NCBI GenBank assembly: GCA_046343015.1
Contig: JBKDOL010000030.1
Coordinates: 87,619-151,618, forward strand
Reading direction: 5' to 3'
Length of the DNA stretch: 64,000 bases
From: Planctomycetota bacterium
GTDB taxonomy: Bacteria; Planctomycetota; Planctomycetia; Pirellulales; Pirellulaceae
The position numbers were made by a program, and so were the translations under genes. The notes beneath the pieces were generated by a model. That model was not told where the DNA came from. It worked only from the letters and a program-made list of their open reading frames with translations, and did no database searches. Below, one piece after another: positions 36,131 to 51,669 of this stretch; the stretch's first letter is position 1; the number at the start of each line of letters is the position of its first letter.

Positions 36131-37198
36131 TTACTTCAAACTCAGGTCAGGTTTGAATTGTTCTTTCTGTTGCTCGAGGATCCTGTTCCACAACTCTCGA
36201 GCTTCCGGCCGGAGATCGGGAAGGTTTCGACCGTAGAGTCGTCGTGAGATGAGCCGCACGGTTTCGGGCGGAAAGTCGTCCTCCGAGAGTTTGCGAGCAG
36301 CTTTCATGACCTTTTCCCGGTCGCTTCGTTTAAATTCCACCAGGAAGTTATCCAAACTCTGCTTGGTGACAATCCCCACCCCCGTCCCGGCCAAGGCAAA
36401 GCGCAAGACCGCTTCGACACTGTCGACTTCAACGGCAATTTCAGGAGCAAGTCCGACGTCTCGATGGTACCATTCCTCGATCAGTCGCCTTTGTAGAGAA
36501 CCCGGTTCAGTCAAAACCAAAGGCACGCCGACGAGGTCCGTTGCCCTTAAAGGGCGTCGGGTCGAGAGGCCTTCCCAGTGCTTTCGCCAGTCGGGGAAAT
36601 ACGATGGTTTGGTAACCGCCAGAAAGCGATCCTGATAAAGTTCCTCGACGTACAACTCGACTCGGGCATACTCGAAAATGGTCACCGGGTCCTCAGTTAC
36701 CAAGGCGAAATCGAATTGTCCCGCCGCGACTCCTTCGATTCGCATCTTGCTCGGTGGCGCCGACAATCGGACGCGGGGATGTTGTGGTTGCCTCAAATAG
36801 GCTTCCACCGCCTTGCCAACCAGACCGACCGCTTGCGCCTGGTCGCAGGCCACCGAAAGCACGGGAGGAGCTTTGCTCGTCTCCGCAATGAATCGCTCGG
36901 CCTGCTCGTAGCGTCGCAATAAGTCCGCCACGACCCCCAACACGCGCTGGCCTTCGGCCGTGACCAGCCATTTTTTCCCCTTCAAAAGCAGCCAGGGCTG
37001 CCCGCCCAAACTGGTCGCTTTGTCGCGCAAGGCGGAGATTCGCCGCGACATGCTCGGTTGGGTAATCCCCAAAATTCTTCCCGCCTCAGCCGCATCACCG
37101 TCATGCTCCGCGATCAAGACAAAGGTCTGGAGCAATTCCACTGGGAGGTTTAACCCTCCCAAAAAGGAGGTCTCAAGATCGCCACTCGTTTTTGCCAT
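36131..37198 (-). CDS. LysR-family transcriptional regulator (with ~60-aa C-terminal extension)
   Basis: N-terminal HTH LQTFVLIAEHDGDAAEAGRILGITQPSMSRRISALR followed by a substrate-binding-type domain. 355 aa. Confidence 0.9.
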   Translation of the reverse strand: MAKTSGDLETSFLGGLNLPVELLQTFVLIAEHDGDAAEAGRILGITQPSMSRRISALRDKATSLGGQPWLLLKGKKWLVTAEGQRVLGVVADLLRRYEQAERFIAETSKAPPVLSVACDQAQAVGLVGKAVEAYLRQPQHPRVRLSAPPSKMRIEGVAAGQFDFALVTEDPVTIFEYARVELYVEELYQDRFLAVTKPSYFPDWRKHWEGLSTRRPLRATDLVGVPLVLTEPGSLQRRLIEEWYHRDVGLAPEIAVEVDSVEAVLRFALAGTGVGIVTKQSLDNFLVEFKRSDREKVMKAARKLSEDDFPPETVRLISRRLYGRNLPDLRPEARELWNRILEQQKEQFKPDLSLK

Positions 37199-37242
37199 GC
37201 TGCTTACCTTTCGAATTCCCAGTCCGTTAGCATGCTTGGCGA

Positions 37243-37548: not shown

Positions 37549-37622
37549 GGAAAAAACAAGGCCGCCGTCTTCGGCAGCTGCTCAGGGAAAATTCCGCTGA
37601 GAACTGCCGCTGACGGCGGCCT
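37549..37622 (-). terminator. intrinsic terminator downstream of the VirD4/TraG-like gene
   Basis: On the minus strand there is a long hairpin with an 11-bp closing stem (aggccgccgtc 37559-37569 / gacggcggcct 37612-37622) plus inner pairs ggcag/ctgcc and ctcag/ctgag. It is followed by TTGTTTTTTCCC. Confidence 0.55.
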
Positions 37623-37679: not shown

Positions 37680-39959
37680 CTAGAACGGAACGTTGCTTTC
37701 ACCCTCCCCCGACAAATCGTCTGCGGCCTGGCTGGAGCCACGCGTCCCCTTTCTCCCCTCGTCCCCCGACTTCTTCCGCGACGCTCGGGGTCCGTCCTTC
37801 GGCTCGCCCTTTGCTTCATCCTTCGACTTGCCGTTGCGACGGCGCGATTTGGACGCGTCCAGCTTTTTGCTGAACCGCAAATAGGCAATCATCACCTCCG
37901 GATCGAATTCCGGATGCTCTTTCATGGTGTAGTAGTACTCCGCCACGTTCGACTTGATCTCGATCAATTCCGAGACCAGCCGGAGCAATCCCCGAAGGCG
38001 CTCCCGATTCTCCGTGAGATAAGCATCCCACCACGACTTGACCCAGGAGAAAGCTGATTCGTAACCGAGTTGATCGAGGCCCTGCCGGATCCCACGGATC
38101 AAGTCTTCGTCCGACCAGTCCCTGACGTCGTCCGCCGTAAAGTGGAACGGAAACTTCAGCTGCACCGGCGGCTTTTTCCTCTGTGGTTCCCGAGTCGACC
38201 GCTTGCCGGCTCGCCGATACCGATTCGGCAAGCGCCGCTCGCGGAGGCGCTCCGTGCCGGTGATCGTTCGCGCCGCAGCCAGCACCTGGCGATATTCGGG
38301 GACCTCGTAAGAGAACTGCAGGTAAGCCTGAAATACGACCTCTCCCAACAGGAACGTCGCCGGTCGCCCAAGCAGAAAATGGCCGTACTCAGGCGAGCGA
38401 ATATCCGTGGGGGAAAGGAGCGGTAGGGTCAGGTACTGGTTGGCATGCCCGGAACCCCCCGACTGCCGCACCAACTGCTGTCCGCTGGCGCGAGAGAAGT
38501 ATTCGGCATCCTCCTGACTGCAGCCAGGCAGGACAATCTGATTGCCAAATGCTTCCAGAACCGCTGGCCCCGAGTGCGGAAACGCCTGATAGAGCGCGGC
38601 GATCGACTGGCAACCGGCAACCACGGCAATTTTGCGGGATCGGAGCGTCAACAACCGCTCAACCGAGAACACCGGTCCCAGCGAGGGGAGGTCATCGACA
38701 AAAATGGTCGCCGGCACGGCCGATTCTCCCAGTCGCTGCGCCGTTGCGATCAGCTTGTCGACAATACATCGCATCAACATCTGAACCAGTGGCAACGCCG
38801 TCTCGAGCGTCGCCTCGTCGACTTCAATCTGCAGGCAGACCGGCTGCTCAAATAATTCATCCAGCTGCAGCTCGTCGCGCGACATTACCCGTTGAATGCT
38901 CTCTTGCTGGAAAGCAACAAACGCCCCGACGATCGTGGCCTCGGTGGTGTCGGCATTCCACGAACCACCCCCGAGAAAGTCAGCCATCTTGCGGGCGTGA
39001 GCGTTGTCCAGTTGCTCCAGTCCCTGCACCATCGCCTTCCGGGATTGGCTGTAAAAGCGGAACATTTCGGGAAAATTCCGATATCCCCCCTCAAACAGCG
39101 CGAGCAATCCCGTGCGGAACATCTGAGTCCAAAACTCCGAGTCGCCGGAACGGGGATTGCGACTGGATTCAGCAAGGCGGCGAATAATGTCGGGAGCTTC
39201 GTTTTTCGAAGCCGTGCGCAGCGGATTGAAACCGACGCTGCGCCAGTCATCTGCAAAGTTCACCACCAGACACCGCTTCCCCACCCGCTCGCAAGCGGTC
39301 GCAATCGGCCCATAATCCGAGGACTTGAGCGACACTGAAATCACGGTCTGCGACCGGTCGCAGAGCGCCGAATAACGGGTCAAATCGATAAACCGGGTAT
39401 TCTTTCCGCCGCCCGATTTTCCCACGACCACCGCGTGCGTCGAGCGCTCTCGCGACTGCCAAACCAGCGATAAACCGTAATGCGGCTCGCGCTGCATGAC
39501 CGGTTGCCCCTCGATCCGCAACAGCGGCACAGTCGCCGGCAATTCCAACGAGCCGGACTCAAAGTCCTGCAAATAACGCTGGAGATCACCCAAGACCGGA
39601 TGCCTCGCCCCGGAGACATATTCAAAAGGACTTTGCGGAGGCCGGTCGGTTCCCTGGTCGGAGCGCAGCATGTCGCAACTGGTCGGGTCGTAAATCCAAC
39701 CCAAGTCCTGACTTTTGCGCGGCGAAGCCGGCAACTCGCCGCTCTGCGACTCGCTCCCCGACTCCGCCAATTCCTCGGCACTGGACCTGGGCAGCGGATC
39801 GGTTTGCCCCTTTCCATCGCCAGCCGAGTTCCGCCCGCTCCCCGCCGCCTCGTCTTTGTCCGGCGTTTGCGACCGGTCGTCACCGCGGTGATGACCAGCC
39901 TTGTCTCCCGGCCCATCATCCTCCGGGCCCTGCTCATCCCACCAACCAATTTCACTCAT
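37680..39959 (-). CDS. VirD4/TraG/TraD-type (type IV coupling protein-like) P-loop ATPase lacking transmembrane segments
   Basis: Walker A-like HAVVVGKSGGGKNTRF, Walker B-like PATIFVDDLPSLG, and KIAVVAGCQSIAALYQAF (QSxxQL signature of TraG/VirD4/TrwB). First ~150 aa are D/E/G/S-rich with no hydrophobic helix. There is an extra helical C-domain and a K/R/S/G-rich tail. Confidence 0.78.
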   Translation of the reverse strand: MSEIGWWDEQGPEDDGPGDKAGHHRGDDRSQTPDKDEAAGSGRNSAGDGKGQTDPLPRSSAEELAESGSESQSGELPASPRKSQDLGWIYDPTSCDMLRSDQGTDRPPQSPFEYVSGARHPVLGDLQRYLQDFESGSLELPATVPLLRIEGQPVMQREPHYGLSLVWQSRERSTHAVVVGKSGGGKNTRFIDLTRYSALCDRSQTVISVSLKSSDYGPIATACERVGKRCLVVNFADDWRSVGFNPLRTASKNEAPDIIRRLAESSRNPRSGDSEFWTQMFRTGLLALFEGGYRNFPEMFRFYSQSRKAMVQGLEQLDNAHARKMADFLGGGSWNADTTEATIVGAFVAFQQESIQRVMSRDELQLDELFEQPVCLQIEVDEATLETALPLVQMLMRCIVDKLIATAQRLGESAVPATIFVDDLPSLGPVFSVERLLTLRSRKIAVVAGCQSIAALYQAFPHSGPAVLEAFGNQIVLPGCSQEDAEYFSRASGQQLVRQSGGSGHANQYLTLPLLSPTDIRSPEYGHFLLGRPATFLLGEVVFQAYLQFSYEVPEYRQVLAAARTITGTERLRERRLPNRYRRAGKRSTREPQRKKPPVQLKFPFHFTADDVRDWSDEDLIRGIRQGLDQLGYESAFSWVKSWWDAYLTENRERLRGLLRLVSELIEIKSNVAEYYYTMKEHPEFDPEVMIAYLRFSKKLDASKSRRRNGKSKDEAKGEPKDGPRASRKKSGDEGRKGTRGSSQAADDLSGEGESNVPF

Positions 39960-41300
39960 GCTGTCACCCCTTCCTCAATCCAAACTCCAAACCATCCAAC
40001 CGCTATCGCGAAACCACTTCCCTATGGTCACAACACCTTCTAAACTTTGTTTTTTGGTTTTCATGCTTTTTACGCATGGTCGAGCGCGGACTGCAATCAA
40101 TCGGGATAACTGCCTATGCGTTCACTGGCCCACTCACGGCCATCAGAAAATCATTTCTCCGACTGAGCCCCCCACGCCCCGCTTTTCCGGCACAGCCAAC
40201 CAAGCCGTCGCCGAAAATCCAGCTCAGACAATCCCAACTCGAATTCCGCCAATCCCTTGCTCACTCAGACCGAGAAAGTCCCGCGGGGTTCGCGGCCACC
40301 TCACGCAGGCCCCGACCCTCAACTCGACGCCGTGCTCCCCCGCAGTCAGTCCGTGACTTTGGAAACGATCCCCTAAAACAAAACTGGTTTGGATAGTCTC
40401 TGGATCGCGGCAAAGAACTCACATCGCCACCGTCCTGCAAACTGCCCTCCCGGCTGAAAGCTTCCTCGACTCATGTTTTGATCAAGCTATCAATCAAAAG
40501 CGGGAAGTCCAGCCCCTCAGTCCGCTCCCCGGCGACAATGGCGGAGCTACCGCCGATCTCGCCTCACCGGGCTCGATCAGCTGGTTTTCCCGCACTCTTC
40601 CGAATTTTCTGGCTCATTCTTCCTTCATGCAAAAAACGCATGCTTTCGGAAAACGCTGCAAATGGCGCGTTTTAAGGCAGGGGCCGATTCGCCGCCAATG
40701 TAAGCTTTTTTTTCGGACCGCTGCGGACAATTCGCCTCGGGGGGCTGTGGAAAACCCGTTGATCGCACTGCGCTAAAATTCCGCTTGCCAATCGATGGGC
40801 CCCGAAGCCACCCTGAACGGCGCCCTGGCAATCCCATCCTGCTGAGATCCGATCTTTTCGCCTTCTGCTTCGCCTTGTGAAGAAAACGGCTCCGACTCTC
40901 GCTTGCAGGTCGCCCCACTGTCCAGCCATGGTGAAAACCACCAACCCAAAACCATAGCTTCTCTGAGTTTCTTTTCCCCCGCGATGGTCGATATTTTGGG
41001 ATAAGCGGTTCGGCAAGAGCCGCCGTCTTTGAAACAGCGCAAGAGCTCGGGGTGATAGTCTCGGTCACCTCGAGCTCTTTCCGTTCGCGAATCGCCGATC
41101 ACCTACTCGGCGACGCACTGTTTATCAGTCAGACGCTCTGTTCATCAGTCAATCGCCGGCCCACCCGCCACCGCAAAGCCAGCCCCCCCACTCTGGGCGG
41201 TAGTCCTGAAATGCGTCCAGCTGCTCACCAAGTTGCTTCTGGCAGAGTGGTTGGCCAGCCAAGTTTTCGCTTCTGGTGCGCACGGGTTACCGCTGCCGGC

Positions 41301-41972
41301 TTAACCGTGCTCTAACACCCATTGGACTGCCTGCCGATTGAGTTCAGCAGCATTCCTGACCCCCAATTTTTTCTTGATGTTCTCCCGATGCGAATCAATC
41401 GTATGCGGACTGAGGAACAACTGGTTGGCAATGGCACTGGTCGTCATGCCGGAACCGATCAAGCGAAAAATCTCCATCTCGCGATTGGTCAACAGTTCGG
41501 CTGGACTGGAACCAAATGTTCGGCGGCGGACAACTCGGGCCAGCATCCGTTGCTTCATTGCTTCACTGAGATAGCAATCGCCACGCATGACGACGCGGAT
41601 CGCTTCAATCAGTTTTTCATTTGACTCCTGCTTGTTCAAATAACCATTGGCCCCGGCCCGCACGGCGCGCTCTGCATACAGTGACTCTTCGAAACCGCTG
41701 ACTACCAACATCTTGACCTGCGGGAACTTGGCAGCGAGTTGCTCGATCAGCTCGAGGCCATGGCTGGCCTTCAAGGCAATATCGACAATCACCAGATCCG
41801 GCCGCGTCGCTTCAACCTTTTCCAGGGCCTGAACCACGTTCTCGGCTTCTCCGCAAACTTCCAGATCAGACTCTGCTGAAATCCGCAAGTTGAGTCCGTC
41901 GCGAACGATCGGGTGATCATCGACAATCAGAATCCGTAGCCTCGTTTTTAGTTCTGACATAACGTTACTCAA
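41301..41972 (-). CDS. NarL/FixJ-family response regulator (REC + LuxR-type HTH)
   Basis: LRILIVDDHPIVRDGL, DLVIVDIALK (phospho-Asp context), and HTH LTNREMEIFRLIGSGMTTSAIANQLFLSPHTIDSHRENIKKKLG. Confidence 0.93.
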   Translation of the reverse strand: MSNVMSELKTRLRILIVDDHPIVRDGLNLRISAESDLEVCGEAENVVQALEKVEATRPDLVIVDIALKASHGLELIEQLAAKFPQVKMLVVSGFEESLYAERAVRAGANGYLNKQESNEKLIEAIRVVMRGDCYLSEAMKQRMLARVVRRRTFGSSPAELLTNREMEIFRLIGSGMTTSAIANQLFLSPHTIDSHRENIKKKLGVRNAAELNRQAVQWVLEHG

Positions 41973-44763
41973 TCACTCCCCCCGGAATTCGACAGCGGAG
42001 AATCGTTCCGTTGCCTAAGCTCGAAACCAACTCCAGTTGGCCGCCCAACAAGTTTGCCCGGTAGTTCATCATCTTCAGCCCCATTCCGCGGGGGCGCCGC
42101 TCGCTCTGAAAGTCATCCTTTAACGCCCCCCTCCCCAAAATCGATTCAAGTCGCGATGTATCCGCCTCACGGCGTTCCAATCGAGAGGAACCGGTCGGCA
42201 TTCCTGCCGTAGCATTTCGCCGAACCTCCATTCCCACGCCATTGTCGCGAATCTCCAGTTCGATCCCATCGGCCAAGGACCGCAATGAGACTCGCAGATG
42301 ACTCGCCTTGCCATGCCTTAAGGCATTATTCACGGCCTCCTGAGCAATTCGATACAGATGCGTGGCGACTGAGTTGTTGGCGACCGGAACCGTAGTGGGA
42401 CAACTGAATTCACACCGAACCCCCGTCTCCTGATTCAATTGATTGATCAATTCCGCCAAGGCGGAAACCAGCCCTTCGGCGTCAATCTGGACGGGCATGA
42501 TCCCATGCGACAGGGCTCGAACCTGTCGATTCGCTTCCCCCAAGCCTAAAGATAAACGTGCGAGGGTCTGCTGAATTCGCTGCCAGTCCTGCTCGTTCAG
42601 TTGCCAGACATTCCCTTCCTGTCCAACCACCTCTTGAGCCTGCGCTAACACCTTCTCCAGCGTGGACGCATACAACCCCAAACCGGTCAATTGCTGCTGG
42701 GTCCCGTCGTGCAATTCTTGACCGATTCTTCGCTGCTCGTCAGCCGCCACCTCCAACACATGCTGCTGAAGTTCACGCAATTCGGAGATGTCGCGCATGA
42801 TCCCCGTAAAACCGTGACGGCCGTTGGCACTGACCGAGATATCGACCGGGAAGATCGTGCCATCCTTCCGCCTCGCGAAGACCTCCCGACTGCTCCCCAC
42901 GAGTCTGGCTTCGCCGGTGTCCCGATACCGTTTGAGAAAGCCGTCATGGGTGTCCTGCGAGAGCGGCGAAAGCAGCGCGACGTTCCGCCCCAACAGTTCC
43001 TCGGGGGCATAACCGAACATCTTCTCGGTCGCCGGATTCACCGAGACAATTACCCCTGAATTGTCAATCGTGACGATCGAATTGAAGGCGTTATCAAAAA
43101 TTGCCCGCAAGCGATCTTCGCGGTCCCGCAGGGCAAGCTCTGCCTGCTTTCTTTCGGTGACATCGCGGACAATCGCCACGTACTGCCGATAGTTGCCCGA
43201 ATCGTTGGTCAGCGGCGTGAGGAAGACTTCACCCAGAAATGATGAACCGTTCTTCCGGTAGTACATCAACTCAGCCCCACAGGACAGCCCTTGCTCCAGG
43301 CGGGCGATCATCTCCTCAACATTTTGATTTGTTTGTTCACCAAAGAAAATCGAGCCTGGAGCACCCAGCAACTCGTCCTGCCGATACCCGGTCATTCGAC
43401 AGAGGGCTTCATTTACGAATTCAAACCTCGGACCGTTGCCGTCAAACGGCCCACCGGCAATTGCAACTCCCTCGCCTAAATTCGAGATCGCGCGGTGCAG
43501 CAGCAGAAGTTCACGATTTTGCGCCGATACCCGTCGCTCCAAGTCGACCTGACTTTCCTTCAACCGATCCGTCAGCTCCTTGAGTTCGCTGAAGTCCTCA
43601 GCAAACACGACGACTCCCCCAACTTCCCCAGTCGGTTCCTGCCAGGGACGCAGCTCACCGCGTACCCAGATCGACTTTCCGTCTCGACAGGTCCAGCGGT
43701 CGCTGTCGAAAGTGACAACCTCCCCCGCCAAGGCCCGCTCCAGCTTGGCTCGCCATTGGAGCGGGTCTTGGGAAAAGCAGGTGTGACACAGCTCACTCTG
43801 CTTCAAACCCACGACACTTTGCTCGCCGGGAACGAAATCGGCTCGCCAGCGGTGACTGACCGCCAGATACCGAAAATCAGCATCAAACATCGCGAGTGCC
43901 ACCGGGGCGTTTTCGACAAATACTCGCAAGAGCCGCGCGCTCTCCTCTCGCAACAGTTCTGCTTGCTTCCGCTCGGTGACATCGAGATTGACACCGACAA
44001 TCCGCTCCGGCCTCCCCTGCCCATCGCGATAAAGCCGCCCGAGCCCCCAGAGCCAGCGCGTCCCCAGTTGCGGGTGCTGGATCTGATATTCCTGCCGCCA
44101 TTCATCTCGCTCGTCTGACTGGATCAGGCTCTGCAAACTTTCCTGAATTCGCTCCCGGTCAGCCGGATGCAGGCGTTCGACCCAGGCACTGACGGTCAGC
44201 GGTTCGGTCTCACTGAATCCGTACAATTGCCGATAGCCTTCCCCCGCTTCATAGTGATCGCCATCGCTGATTACCCAGCACCAGTTCATGGCCCCCGAAG
44301 AGCGGAGTGCCAATTCCAACTGCTCCTCCCTTTCCATGAGCAGTTTTCGATCGGCTTCAGCAGCCGAATCATCCAGCACAATCGCCAGCAACAGCTCCGC
44401 TGTTCCCTCCGCGCCACGCACCGTGCTACCGGTAAAGCGAACCGAGACGACGCTGCCATCTTTCCGCAAGTATCGCTTGCGAGTCTCATAATTGTGCAGC
44501 TCTCCGGCGACTAACTGGCAATATCGCTCCCGCTCCACACTCCGCTCAGCCGGATGGCACAACTCCTCAATCGCCATCCCCCGCAATTCAACTTCGCTGT
44601 AGCCGACAATTCTCTGGAACATCAGGTTGGCAAACAGCGGCCGCCGGCTGCGCGCATCGCAGAGGACCAACCCCGGTCCCGCCTGCGCGAACCATTTTTG
44701 AAAATCAGCCTGGTCGCCGATCAACGACTCCAGTTCGCGGGACGTTTCTGTTCCTTGATTCAT
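41965..44763 (-). CDS. multi-PAS sensor histidine kinase (HisKA_3 / NarX-type dimerisation domain)
   Basis: Several PAS/PAC segments, with two DVTERKQAEL junctions. H-box EQRRIGQELHDGTQQQL, N-box IAQEAVNNALRHG, and G-boxes IRDNGVGM ... GMGLKMMNYRANLLGG separated by a ~45-aa insert. 8-nt overlap with the response regulator gene. Confidence 0.9.
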   Translation of the reverse strand: MNQGTETSRELESLIGDQADFQKWFAQAGPGLVLCDARSRRPLFANLMFQRIVGYSEVELRGMAIEELCHPAERSVERERYCQLVAGELHNYETRKRYLRKDGSVVSVRFTGSTVRGAEGTAELLLAIVLDDSAAEADRKLLMEREEQLELALRSSGAMNWCWVISDGDHYEAGEGYRQLYGFSETEPLTVSAWVERLHPADRERIQESLQSLIQSDERDEWRQEYQIQHPQLGTRWLWGLGRLYRDGQGRPERIVGVNLDVTERKQAELLREESARLLRVFVENAPVALAMFDADFRYLAVSHRWRADFVPGEQSVVGLKQSELCHTCFSQDPLQWRAKLERALAGEVVTFDSDRWTCRDGKSIWVRGELRPWQEPTGEVGGVVVFAEDFSELKELTDRLKESQVDLERRVSAQNRELLLLHRAISNLGEGVAIAGGPFDGNGPRFEFVNEALCRMTGYRQDELLGAPGSIFFGEQTNQNVEEMIARLEQGLSCGAELMYYRKNGSSFLGEVFLTPLTNDSGNYRQYVAIVRDVTERKQAELALRDREDRLRAIFDNAFNSIVTIDNSGVIVSVNPATEKMFGYAPEELLGRNVALLSPLSQDTHDGFLKRYRDTGEARLVGSSREVFARRKDGTIFPVDISVSANGRHGFTGIMRDISELRELQQHVLEVAADEQRRIGQELHDGTQQQLTGLGLYASTLEKVLAQAQEVVGQEGNVWQLNEQDWQRIQQTLARLSLGLGEANRQVRALSHGIMPVQIDAEGLVSALAELINQLNQETGVRCEFSCPTTVPVANNSVATHLYRIAQEAVNNALRHGKASHLRVSLRSLADGIELEIRDNGVGMEVRRNATAGMPTGSSRLERREADTSRLESILGRGALKDDFQSERRPRGMGLKMMNYRANLLGGQLELVSSLGNGTILRCRIPGGVIE

Positions 44764-49844: not shown

Positions 49845-51074
49845 CTAACCTTTCAAGTTTGCCCGCAATCCCCCCGCACGCGCGATCAGGGAACGTTCGA
49901 CAGCGGCTTCCGAAAATCCTGTTGCCAACAGGGTCACGACTGGTTCGCCGCGGGCGATCACGTTGCCCATGGGTGGAATATCGGCGAGCCGTCCGGCCGC
50001 TCGCTCTCTTCGCAGCCACTCGCTCTGAGTCCGGTCGATCATCAGCGGCCGATCTTCCGGCCAAAACAAAACTGCTTTGCCGAATACAGTTGCGTTGCTC
50101 GAGCCGCTCGCTTCACAAGTTGCAGAGCTTCCGATCGACCCGGAGCAGAAAGGAGAAGTGGCGGCGCGCGCGACAGGCCAACCTGCCCCCTCTGCGAACT
50201 CGGTCGCTTGCAGTCCAACCAAACTGCCGCGCGGTGTTGCCATTTCCCACAACTCCCCGCTGGCCGTGATCCGCGGATTGATTTCGATCGGGCAAAGTTC
50301 ATCGCCGATCGCCATCAGATCGATACCGATGACGCCACGGCCACCGAGTTCCACCAGCCCTCGGCCAATCGTCTCCAACTGGTCGGCCTGACTGGCTGAA
50401 ATCGGCAAGGGGCCGATGGCTCCACAGTACTGATAATCCTTTGCCCCGAACTCGCGGCGACCGCAGAGCTGCCGAAAAAAGCCCAAGCAGCTTGCCTGTC
50501 CCCTGGTCAGGAAAAATAGCGCACTGGAGGCCAACCCGCGTTTCAGCTCCTGGAGAAATTCCGAACCGGCAGCGTTCCCCTCCTGAGCAATCCAATCGGC
50601 TACTGCTTTTGAATCGAGTAGCCGGACGCCCTGACCGCCAGAGCTGTCAGCGCGTTTCAGGAGCCATTGCTTTGCCGGATCCTGAGGTGGCGGTTCCTTC
50701 GATCGCTCGCCTCGACCGGCGGAACGATGCTGTGGCACGCGAATCCCCGCAGCGGCAAAAACAGCAGTCCATCGCTCGGGATCGCGCAGGGCGGCACAGG
50801 ACTCGGCGGAAAGATTCCACAACGGCGCCCGCTCGCGCAATGCGGCGACGAGGTTGGGCTGCGTTTCAAATCCCCCGCCAATCAGGATCGCGTCAGGGCG
50901 CAAGCCTTCGGCCGCTTCAGGAATCTCCGCCCAGCCTCCAACGCGGACGACTTCACCGGCTTCGGTCGCGTCGACATCGGCAAAAAAGTCGATCCCTGCC
51001 GACTGCATTCCCGTCCGCTGCGCACTTTGCAGGAGCCATCTCACAGACGGCCCCACGACGACCAATCGATTCAA
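49845..51074 (-). CDS. ATP-grasp superfamily protein (of the kind linked to H4MPT/C1 gene clusters)
   Basis: LLKRADSSGGQGVRLL, GVIGIDLM and IEINPRITAS are ATP-grasp-like. TTG start. Divergent from fae. Confidence 0.72.
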   Translation of the reverse strand: MNRLVVVGPSVRWLLQSAQRTGMQSAGIDFFADVDATEAGEVVRVGGWAEIPEAAEGLRPDAILIGGGFETQPNLVAALRERAPLWNLSAESCAALRDPERWTAVFAAAGIRVPQHRSAGRGERSKEPPPQDPAKQWLLKRADSSGGQGVRLLDSKAVADWIAQEGNAAGSEFLQELKRGLASSALFFLTRGQASCLGFFRQLCGRREFGAKDYQYCGAIGPLPISASQADQLETIGRGLVELGGRGVIGIDLMAIGDELCPIEINPRITASGELWEMATPRGSLVGLQATEFAEGAGWPVARAATSPFCSGSIGSSATCEASGSSNATVFGKAVLFWPEDRPLMIDRTQSEWLRRERAAGRLADIPPMGNVIARGEPVVTLLATGFSEAAVERSLIARAGGLRANLKG

Positions 51075-51110
51075 GCCTATCTCCCATCTGGTTGGCAGCC
51101 CGCCCTTGGT

Positions 51111-51125
51111 CTGCTAATTTAGCAG
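51111..51125. promoter_or_regulatory. palindrome CTGCTA-att-TAGCAG in the ATP-grasp/fae divergent region
   Basis: Perfect 6+6 inverted repeat, 47 bp upstream of the fae ATG. Confidence 0.3.
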
Positions 51126-51171
51126 CCTCACTCAACCGTTGTTTTCACCATTATTGAATCAGGAGATTTCC

Positions 51172-51669
51172 ATGTCGATGTTCATCGGCGAAGCCCTCGC
51201 GGGAGACGGAAACGAAATCGCTCATATCGACTTGCTAATCGGGAGCAAGTCCGGGCCCGTCGGCACGGCTTTTGCCAACGCCTTGGCCACCCAAAGCGAA
51301 GGACACACCAACCTGCTGGCCGTTTTGACCCCCAATCTCGCTGTCAAGCCAGCTACCGTGATGATCACCAAGGTCACCATCAAGGGGATGAAGCAGGCGG
51401 TTCAGATGTTCGGCCCGGCTCAGGCAGCCGTTGCCAAAGCGGTCGCCGACAGTGTCTCCGACGGGGTCATCCCGAAGAACCAGACCGAAGACCTCGTCAT
51501 CGTCTGCGGTGTGTTCATTCACCCCGCCGCCAGCGATGACAAGAAGATCTATCAGTACAATTACGACGCCACCAAGGCCGCCATCGTCAATGCGATGGGC
51601 AACAAGCCTTCCGTTGATGAAATGATCGCCGGCAAGGAAAAGGCAGTCCATCCGTTCCGCGGTTTCTAA
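51172..51669 (+). CDS. fae: formaldehyde-activating enzyme (5,6,7,8-tetrahydromethanopterin hydro-lyase)
   Basis: IGEALAGDGNEIAHIDLLIG, VQMFGPAQ, CGVFIH, YNYDATK and HPF are collinear with Methylobacterium Fae as I remember it. AGGAG SD before ATG 51172. Confidence 0.93.
   Translation: MSMFIGEALAGDGNEIAHIDLLIGSKSGPVGTAFANALATQSEGHTNLLAVLTPNLAVKPATVMITKVTIKGMKQAVQMFGPAQAAVAKAVADSVSDGVIPKNQTEDLVIVCGVFIHPAASDDKKIYQYNYDATKAAIVNAMGNKPSVDEMIAGKEKAVHPFRGF

Follow-up and report, generated by a model that had tools for sequence, protein, structure and literature searches.

What is a gene of the conjugation type doing on its own in a planctomycete genome? The question is raised by a 64-kb stretch of planctomycete DNA (hereafter the window), which carries on its minus strand, at 37680..39959 (stop codon 37680-37682), an open reading frame (ORF) of 759 aa whose Pfam matches identify it as a coupling-protein-like ATPase, predicted to be soluble. 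An NCBI protein from a metagenome-assembled genome (MAG), P0001, has equal length and is 99% identical to it; at NCBI the family bears only a generic label. On the evidence of sequence comparison, the gene belongs to a large, undescribed planctomycete family in which a coupling-protein ATPase is followed by a five-helix C-terminal domain (C-domain) with an invariant Trp-Trp pair, and it appears to be vertically inherited under purifying selection rather than left over from an integrated conjugative element. Below we set out the evidence for these statements and then weigh what such a protein might do.

The assignment to the coupling-protein class comes from several convergent comparisons. Over residues ~174-521, the window protein passes the Pfam gathering cut-offs of T4SS-DNA_transf (PF02534; 42.9 bits against 20.1), TrwB_AAD_bind (PF10412; 36.2 against 20.5), and TraG-D_C (PF12696; 28.7 against 22); all Pfam families matching it at E <= 1 are of the coupling-protein type, and neither FtsK nor HerA gave a Pfam match. 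Among the NCBIfam models, the VirD4-like conju_CD1115 (NF045973) was the sole match, with 64.6 bits, far under its cut-off of 250. PADLOC-DB 2.0 returned no defence family for this protein at E <= 1, and a search of PDB sequences with the single window sequence recovered nothing meaningful. We then compared an AlphaFold2 model, computed from an alignment of 17 relatives (mean predicted local distance difference test [pLDDT] score, 77.7), with the PDB using Foldseek. The best match was TrwB (E 2e-17; TM-score 0.75, normalised to TrwB, over ~480 aligned columns), followed by Cagbeta (E ~6e-16) and DotL (3.5e-8). FtsK/SpoIIIE and HerA are related ring-forming P-loop pumps; the structural matches on that side, to HerA and VirB4-type chains, were far weaker (E ~1e-7, TM-scores 0.3-0.45), about ten orders below TrwB. 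A family profile aligned with the TrwB sequence at E 2e-9, placing in register Walker A, Walker B (FIDDlpSL versus FIDELASL), the R-x-R-K motif (gRKAG in TrwB), and the Q-S motif (AGLQS in TrwB); residues G180, G183, G185, K186, F420, D422, R440, R442, and Q451 do not vary among 17 sequences. Taking the TrwB-like fold together with these motifs, we predict that the window protein is an ATPase of the coupling-protein (VirD4/TraG/TrwB) class, and the intact catalytic set looks competent for a putative activity. The initial annotation had made the same assignment, and a better match to a different P-loop family did not arise in the Pfam, Foldseek, or profile-alignment comparisons.

The likeness to TrwB of R388 (PDB 1E9R, 1E9S, 1GKI) lies in the nucleotide-binding domain (NBD) and its inserted all-alpha domain, with the motifs in register at ~18% overall identity. 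Pfam, Foldseek, and the profile alignment place this region at residues 166-560 (38280..39464, minus strand, as are all parts of the protein given below). It includes Walker A, GKSGGGKN (residues 180-187; 39399..39422), with its invariant residues and the TrwB counterpart GATGTGKS, and the Walker B region IFVDDLPSLG (residues 419-428; 38676..38705), with the R440-x-R442-K and Q451-S motifs coming after it. All three motifs by which the gene had initially been recognised, namely, GKSGGGKN, FVDDLPSLG (residues 420-428), and CQSIAALYQAF (residues 450-460), are found in the 759-aa ORF. The differences from TrwB are at the two ends: the window protein is without transmembrane (TM) helices and has instead a 78-residue N-domain and an acidic tail, it adds a basic linker, a novel C-domain, and a tail ending in ...VPF, and it has neither a relaxase nor a type IV secretion system (T4SS) alongside.

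The AlphaFold2 model resolves these additions well, with most of residues ~90-583 and ~600-712 at pLDDT >85, the core at >90, and three disordered stretches (residues 1-87, 584-598, and 713-759). The N-terminal tail, residues 1-87 (39699..39959), has pLDDT <50 and is gapped in relatives; it is specific to the clade of the window protein and absent in relatives of 40-45% identity, and residues 1-90 carry a net charge of -11. Its extreme N-terminus, the aromatic and acidic MSEIGWWDE (residues 1-9; window 39933-39959), is kept as MSE(I/L)G(W/F)... in orthologues of 54-74% identity and may be a short linear motif within the disordered tail. The following N-domain, residues 88-165 (39465..39698), is modelled with beta strands at pLDDT ~72-92 and is conserved across the family, with 78-41% identity among P0002-P0016; a hidden Markov model (HMM) of the N-motif is positive for the window clade in our tree. 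Its signature, DPTS.EMLRS..G.D.P...PF.YVSG.RHP..., occupies the place of the TM helices of canonical coupling proteins. No TM-grade segment was detected in the window protein, its best 19-residue Kyte-Doolittle mean being 1.31, within the ATPase core, which agrees with the earlier observation that the N-terminal TM helices are missing. Nor did this measure reach TM grade in the relatives P0001-P0018. We therefore predict a soluble protein in which the small N-domain has replaced the membrane anchor.

At the other end, charge and pLDDT delimit a strongly basic, partly disordered linker, residues 561-602 (38154..38279), with a net charge of +11 and 35% K/R over residues 561-600 and pLDDT <50 at 584-598. 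It leads into the C-domain, residues 603-712 (37824..38153), the signature module of the family with its invariant Trp-Trp pair, and finally into a disordered tail rich in K, R, S, and G, residues 713-759 (37683..37823; pLDDT <50), in which an acidic stretch precedes the terminal ...SNVPF. Both the extra helical domain and the tail after it had been anticipated in the initial annotation. Modelled alone, the C-domain (~110 aa) forms five helices at pLDDT 93.6; it is mildly acidic and contains no winged helix, and its HMM matches the window protein at E 3e-42. Neither this domain nor the N-domain has a Pfam match at E <= 10 other than a meaningless LisH at 0.12. A Foldseek search with the C-domain recovered no fold analogue (best E 3.4 against PDB and 0.78 against BFVD), and tblastn of the C-domain against PLSDB and INPHARED gave no matches. 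Its alignment diverges too strongly to yield a pattern for scanning. FtsK, likewise a motor joined through a flexible linker to a small targeting domain at its C-terminus, serves here as a working analogy.

How widespread is this architecture? A pattern scan of GTDB species genomes found 19 loci, all in Planctomycetota bins (Gemmataceae, Pirellulaceae, and Planctomycetaceae, and, among cultured organisms, Tautonia sociabilis of the Isosphaeraceae) bar one "Chitinophaga" contig, which is probably misbinned; two MAGs have two copies each. An exhaustive profile search, counted as representatives of clusters at 50% identity, recovered 8442 representatives at E <= 1e-3 and 295 at E <= 1e-30. Among the best 150 representatives, the ATPase is present in 124, 107 of which also have the C-domain. 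A ClpX-like module is fused to five, and one group is extended at the N-terminus by ~300 aa of uncharacterised sequence. Seven, which cluster together, combine N-terminal TM-like segments with the C-domain. The other 26 of the 150 have two to five C-domain repeats without the coupling-protein ATPase. At the 50% identity level, the family numbers about 120 clusters or more. We found no description of it in the literature and no relatives on IMG/VR viral contigs.

Most members have no anchor, and their genes stand alone among unrelated neighbours. A conserved operon partner was sought by all-versus-all BLAST of the neighbours in 29 loci, and none emerged except a LysR gene in the closest clade. 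The contexts include PSCyt/DUF1501, ADH, and AspRS genes; DUF1501 recurs near members because it is an abundant planctomycete family. Members at 40-45% identity to the window protein are found beside TIR-TPR and TCAD9 genes, or beside TIR-STAND, WD40, IS66, and kinase-FGE-sulfatase genes. Genes of the last type flank family members in four of the loci surveyed (L005-L008). The rooting of our neighbour-joining tree is unreliable because canonical coupling proteins align with the core profile over too few columns.

The surroundings of the window gene are those of a housekeeping region. Directly downstream, on the same strand, lies the gene of a LysR-type regulator (36131..37198; Pfam LysR_substrate and HTH_1), followed in order by genes for an 848-aa membrane protein, a sigma-54 activator, ChaN, and Cpn60. 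On the other side, past a 1.3-kb intergenic region, there are genes for a LuxR-type response regulator, a PAS histidine kinase, TatD, a metallophosphoesterase, a GT2 glycosyltransferase, a GNAT protein, an ATP-grasp protein, and Fae; farther out lie those for an H+-PPase, PDH E1/E2, an HtrA-like protease, an aminotransferase, an RluD-like pseudouridine synthase, and UvrC. A Pfam scan of 30 other ORFs of the window (about ten smaller ones being left out) revealed no relaxase, VirB4, integrase, or transposase. Likewise, tblastn of the whole window with TrwC, canonical coupling proteins, insertion sequence transposases, PcfJ, DUF6573, ParA, and a ClpX-like protein, all taken from related loci, gave no matches, in keeping with the orphan status initially reported for the gene.

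Relatives spanning 99% down to 26% identity to the window protein allow its inheritance to be traced. In two loci with orthologues of 64% (L004) and 55% (L001) identity, the order Mpt_N / Fae / ATP-grasp / GNAT / GT2 / Metallophos / TatD / gene / LysR / ... / ChaN is shared with the window, and the adjacency of the gene and LysR is kept although other genes have been inserted on both sides. The window has extra genes between LysR and ChaN compared with these two loci. Another difference is at 41301-44763, where TatD is separated from the gene by a PAS-rich histidine kinase and a LuxR-type response regulator that are missing from L001 and L004, which implies either an insertion in the window lineage or a loss in the others. 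The Fae and ATP-grasp cluster (49845-51669), of tetrahydromethanopterin-linked C1 metabolism and accompanied by Mpt_N in L001 and L004, is syntenic in the three loci and is housekeeping typical of planctomycetes. The GC content (0.604), GC at third codon positions, and codon usage of the gene are within the range of the window genes. The orthologues at this locus are all intact (751-808 aa), and in 26 of 26 loci where family genes were clustered the gene forms one long ORF that is complete or nearly complete in length, with none of the frameshifted relatives that decay would leave. Identity across relatives follows the domains (NBD 86-49%, N-domain 78-41%, C-domain 73-17%), the tails being near random. 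Taken together, synteny, intact ORFs, and domain-wise conservation point to vertical inheritance under purifying selection. The suggestion that the gene is the last remnant of an integrated conjugative element is not supported: it occupies the same site in relatives of 64% and 55% identity, has native codons and invariant motifs, and its relatives are intact. The alternative suggestion of a domesticated translocase fits better; it was incomplete in that the gene is part of a large family, distant members of which lie in relaxase-bearing elements.

These distant members provide the link to conjugation. In Tautonia sociabilis GM2012 (L027; NZ_RYZH01000015.1:99348-121111), a member 23% identical to the window protein, with the C-domain present, is flanked on one side by a TrwC relaxase and a canonical coupling protein and on the other by a coupling protein and a TrwC relaxase. 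A DUF6573 gene, a PD-(D/E)XK nuclease, and a weak sub-threshold match to DUF932 are also found there, and the locus resembles a hotspot for mobile elements. This family member is closely preceded by a 131-aa ORF containing a TM-like segment. The layout agrees with a report that planctomycete chromosomes often hold MOB_F relaxases and a type IV coupling protein (T4CP) with no complete mating-pore system (preprint 10.1101/2024.01.22.576637). The nearest annotated plasmid homologues are Firmicutes proteins labelled "VirD4-like, CD1115 family," with 22-24% identity over residues ~160-520. One of these is encoded on pRE25 by the tenth gene in the operon for Inc18 transfer; it is devoid of TM segments (hydropathy maximum, 1.16), and the gene directly before encodes a 143-aa TM protein (hydropathy 3.15). 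The pair thus corresponds to TraJ and TraI, which define the "T4CP lacking TMD" subfamily, with TraJ of pIP501 as the precedent for a coupling protein without a TM domain (PMC7434980). The window protein resembles TraJ of pIP501 and pRE25 in the missing TM domain and in its best NCBIfam and annotated plasmid matches. TraJ, however, is encoded in a T4SS operon right after its small membrane partner TraI, and the window gene has neither: no ORF with a TM-grade segment was found in either intergenic region flanking it. TraJ also lacks the N-domain and C-domain, and the score of the window protein falls far below the cut-off of the CD1115 model.

The C-domain has a life beyond this ATPase. Its profile recovered 174 proteins, many of which, among those read, are fragments of family members. 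Small stand-alone C-domain proteins as a class had to be set aside, many of those read being C-terminal fragments of family members on short contigs or parts of ClpX-like genes that are broken up by frameshifts on long-read contigs. One 147-aa protein with the C-domain alone (P0033; L031 8001-8444, on a 15-kb short-read contig) may be a genuine case; the unknowns of 360 and 418 aa encoded after it share no homology with the genes that follow the family member P0009 in L002. A 476-aa protein with two tandem C-domains is encoded directly upstream of the family member P0018 (L009 3807-5237), preceded on the same strand by an 1148-aa kinase-AAA_16 gene. C-domain repeats also stand at the C-termini of STAND (AAA_16)-TPR, DUF4062-STAND, and 1900-2200-aa Ser/Thr-kinase proteins (P0198, P0247, P0266, P0286). 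Directly downstream of another C-domain protein, P0110, there is a diversity-generating retroelement (bAvd and reverse transcriptase) with FGE-sulfatase-domain targets (L034 1562-4899). Since the domain is common to unrelated ATPases and signalling proteins and occurs in tandem in a neighbouring gene, a putative role as a docking or adaptor module fits best.

A further set of combinations involves ClpX. In three loci (L029 8674-10549, L030 8771-10282, and L033 6916-8525), ClpX-like AAA+ genes carry one to three C-domains and no coupling-protein ATPase; these genes are broken by frameshifts and lie on long-read contigs, two of which (L029 and L030) are mobile-element-like, with ParA, TrwC, TrwB, DUF6573, PcfJ, and IS3. 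The five fusions seen among the best representatives (P0177, P0189, P0196, P0246, and P0258, including L035 101-3196 and L036 789-3755) combine the ClpX-like module, the coupling-protein ATPase, and the C-domain in a single chain. They are lone genes or lie beside a PIN/MazE pair (one case) or an ISL3 transposase (another). Their N-terminal module matches Escherichia coli ClpX at E 7e-46, without the zinc-binding domain; as read by eye, the IGF-like ClpP-docking tripeptide is kept and the GYVG pore loop is present only in P0177.

The C-terminal tip suggests a second docking element. The window protein ends in ...GESNVPF, and a ...PF terminus is found in 12 of the 124 ATPase-bearing representatives against ~0.25 expected, several ending in ...DDIPF or ...DDVPF. 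With the tails of SSB, TraD, VirD4, and DotL, the family shares a disordered acidic C-terminal tail and a terminal Phe, and some members have exactly ...DDIPF. The terminal Phe of TraD docks on TraM. The tip of the window protein is less acidic than that of SSB, in which DDDIPF is a protein-docking hexapeptide (PMC5872125). The C-terminal domains of coupling proteins are themselves rich in Asp and Glu, and the acidic tail of DotL helps receive effectors (PMC7434980).

The DNA on both sides of the gene is consistent with a transcription unit of its own. A strong intrinsic terminator on the minus strand (37550..37622), as initially claimed, was found directly, ~60-130 nt beyond the stop codon: a 64-nt hairpin (37559-37622; folding free energy -51.7 kcal/mol, z -7.5) is followed by a U-tract (37550-37558), UUGUUUUUU. 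Upstream, the 1.3-kb intergenic region has a GC content of 0.565 against 0.604 for the gene, which had been noted as a visible drop; it is an ordinary intergenic dip and no sign of foreign DNA, and the region carries conserved operator-like palindromes. The exact sequence CATGC-N7-GCATG occurs twice in the 64 kb, both times upstream of the gene (40062..40078, ~103 nt upstream of the ATG, and 40626..40642, ~670 nt upstream), against a naive expectation of ~0.06. Copies with one mismatch are not enriched (4 observed, 2.7 expected), so only the exact ones count. In L001 and L010 the palindrome recurs ~145 nt before the orthologues, and in L004 it lies farther upstream; it is among the conserved islands in the aligned upstream regions of the window, L004, and L001. 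In the minus-strand reading, two other stretches are kept in L001 and L004: ACGGGTTTTCCACAG and then TCCGAAAAAAAA at 40700-40760, and CGCATGAAAACAAAAAAACA directly after the proximal palindrome, at ~40040-40062. The palindrome is of the T-N11-A type, the generic consensus of LysR-type boxes. The adjacent LysR protein is probably the regulator that acts through these sites, a candidate role read from sequence and gene order. A sigma-70 promoter scan found none. The sole Rfam match in the flanks, CRISPR-DR30 at 37148-37217 (25.7 bits against a gathering threshold of 50, E 0.17), is below threshold, overlaps the start codon of the LysR gene, and is taken as chance.

Taking these findings together, we propose, with confidence and doubt about evenly balanced, that the window protein works as a ring motor of the TrwB type, soluble and expressed conditionally, which was exapted from mobile elements of planctomycetes and is recruited to its targets through the C-domain and the acidic ...PF tip. 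The gene would have been taken from such elements and would now be a vertically inherited chromosomal gene forming its own transcription unit; the Tautonia member among relaxases, the seven TM-retaining representatives with the C-domain, and the TraJ-type plasmid homologues are all consistent with this origin. The protein would form a hexamer that spends ATP on threading or remodelling a polymer (DNA or a protein-DNA complex being the likeliest) in the cytoplasm and not at a type IV secretion channel. The C-domain would dock proteins that set where and on what the motor acts, the tip would bring in a further partner in the manner of SSB and TraD, and expression would be made conditional via the palindromes, probably by the LysR protein. 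Several points count against this proposal. TrwB without its TM domain fails to hexamerise alone (PMC7434980), and the hexamer is therefore an assumption here. The activity of every family member is a prediction, and as to the substrate, the ClpX-like fusions speak for protein as much as for DNA. The docking role of the C-domain is read solely from its domain combinations, and in the window clade this domain is 17-29% identical to the common form, so its partners there may differ. The connection to LysR consists of adjacency in three loci and a motif fitting merely the generic T-N11-A; the LysR gene itself has no matching palindrome before it. Finally, with 64 kb of the genome in view, a relaxase or secretion system could lie elsewhere in it.

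That last point bears on a reading we consider unlikely but worth weighing, in which the protein is a working conjugative coupling protein acting in trans, brought to the channel by a partner as TraJ is, and serving relaxase-bearing elements or an unrecognised mating pore elsewhere. It has the fold and motifs of coupling proteins, its nearest annotated relatives are of the TM-less TraJ type, the Tautonia member is surrounded by TrwC relaxases, planctomycete chromosomes frequently have MOB_F relaxases with a T4CP and no complete mating pore (10.1101/2024.01.22.576637), and coupling proteins typically dock their substrates through acidic tails at the C-terminus (PMC7434980). On the other hand, there is no relaxase, T4SS, or small membrane partner nearby, the gene is fixed at a housekeeping site across species, most members are lone genes among unrelated neighbours, and the CD1115 score of 64.6 is far below 250. 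A role against phages or mobile elements has a similarly modest chance. The protein would then capture, for example, the relaxase-DNA complexes of invaders, with the C-domain wiring it to STAND, TIR, and kinase sensors and to proteolysis by ClpX-like proteins and ClpP. The neighbours of the 40-45% relatives (TIR-TPR/TCAD9, TIR-STAND/WD40/IS66, and a Pkinase-AAA_16 gene with a protein of two C-domains), the PIN/MazE and ISL3 contexts of the ClpX-like fusions, the paired copies in two MAGs, the sharing of the C-domain with STAND-TPR, DUF4062-STAND, and kinase proteins, and the ClpP-docking tripeptide retained in the ClpX-like modules all speak for it. Against this, the PADLOC search was empty, no nuclease or effector is consistently linked, no neighbour is universally kept, no relatives appear on IMG/VR viral contigs, and the window clade is syntenic and vertical, unlike typical defence genes; moreover, kinase, STAND, and TPR genes are abundant in planctomycetes, and some of the adjacency may therefore be chance.

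Two simpler readings carry little weight. The orphan position of a conjugation-type gene with distant relatives in mobile elements might suggest a functionless, decaying remnant of an integrated conjugative element; we think this very improbable given the intact 759-aa ORF, the invariant catalytic residues, the intact orthologues at the locus, the conservation that tracks domains, the native codons, the gene's own terminator, and the conserved upstream motifs. That the protein belongs to another family of P-loop pumps (HerA, FtsK, VirB4) and merely resembles coupling proteins seems more improbable still: HerA and VirB4-type chains are indeed among the Foldseek matches but trail TrwB by some ten orders, only coupling-protein Pfam families match at E <= 1, and the TrwB all-alpha domain is present. 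A bolder reading, which we offer as a long shot, is that planctomycetes have a cytoplasmic machine specific to them, in which a coupling-protein-derived ring is turned against or away from conjugation. Some members would be fused to a ClpX ring with ClpP-docking loops, such that, for instance, invader complexes are handed to an unfoldase and protease; the helical adaptor would connect the machine to STAND, TIR-like, and kinase sensors, and the window copy would be a fixed, LysR-controlled version.

To our knowledge, little is known of the cell biology and gene transfer of Planctomycetota. Coupling proteins have been studied nearly exclusively as gatekeepers of conjugation and effector secretion, with the membrane anchor deemed essential for both function and ring assembly. 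TM-less coupling proteins are already known, as in TraJ of pIP501; what is new here is the family with the C-domain. This domain is a new, confidently folding module that joins ATPase motors to STAND and kinase signalling proteins. The fusions with ClpX homologues tie the coupling-protein motor to an unfoldase and bear on how relaxases and other folded substrates come to be unfolded for transfer. If the proteins of this planctomycete family are active, the TrwB-type motor would have a second life outside secretion systems.

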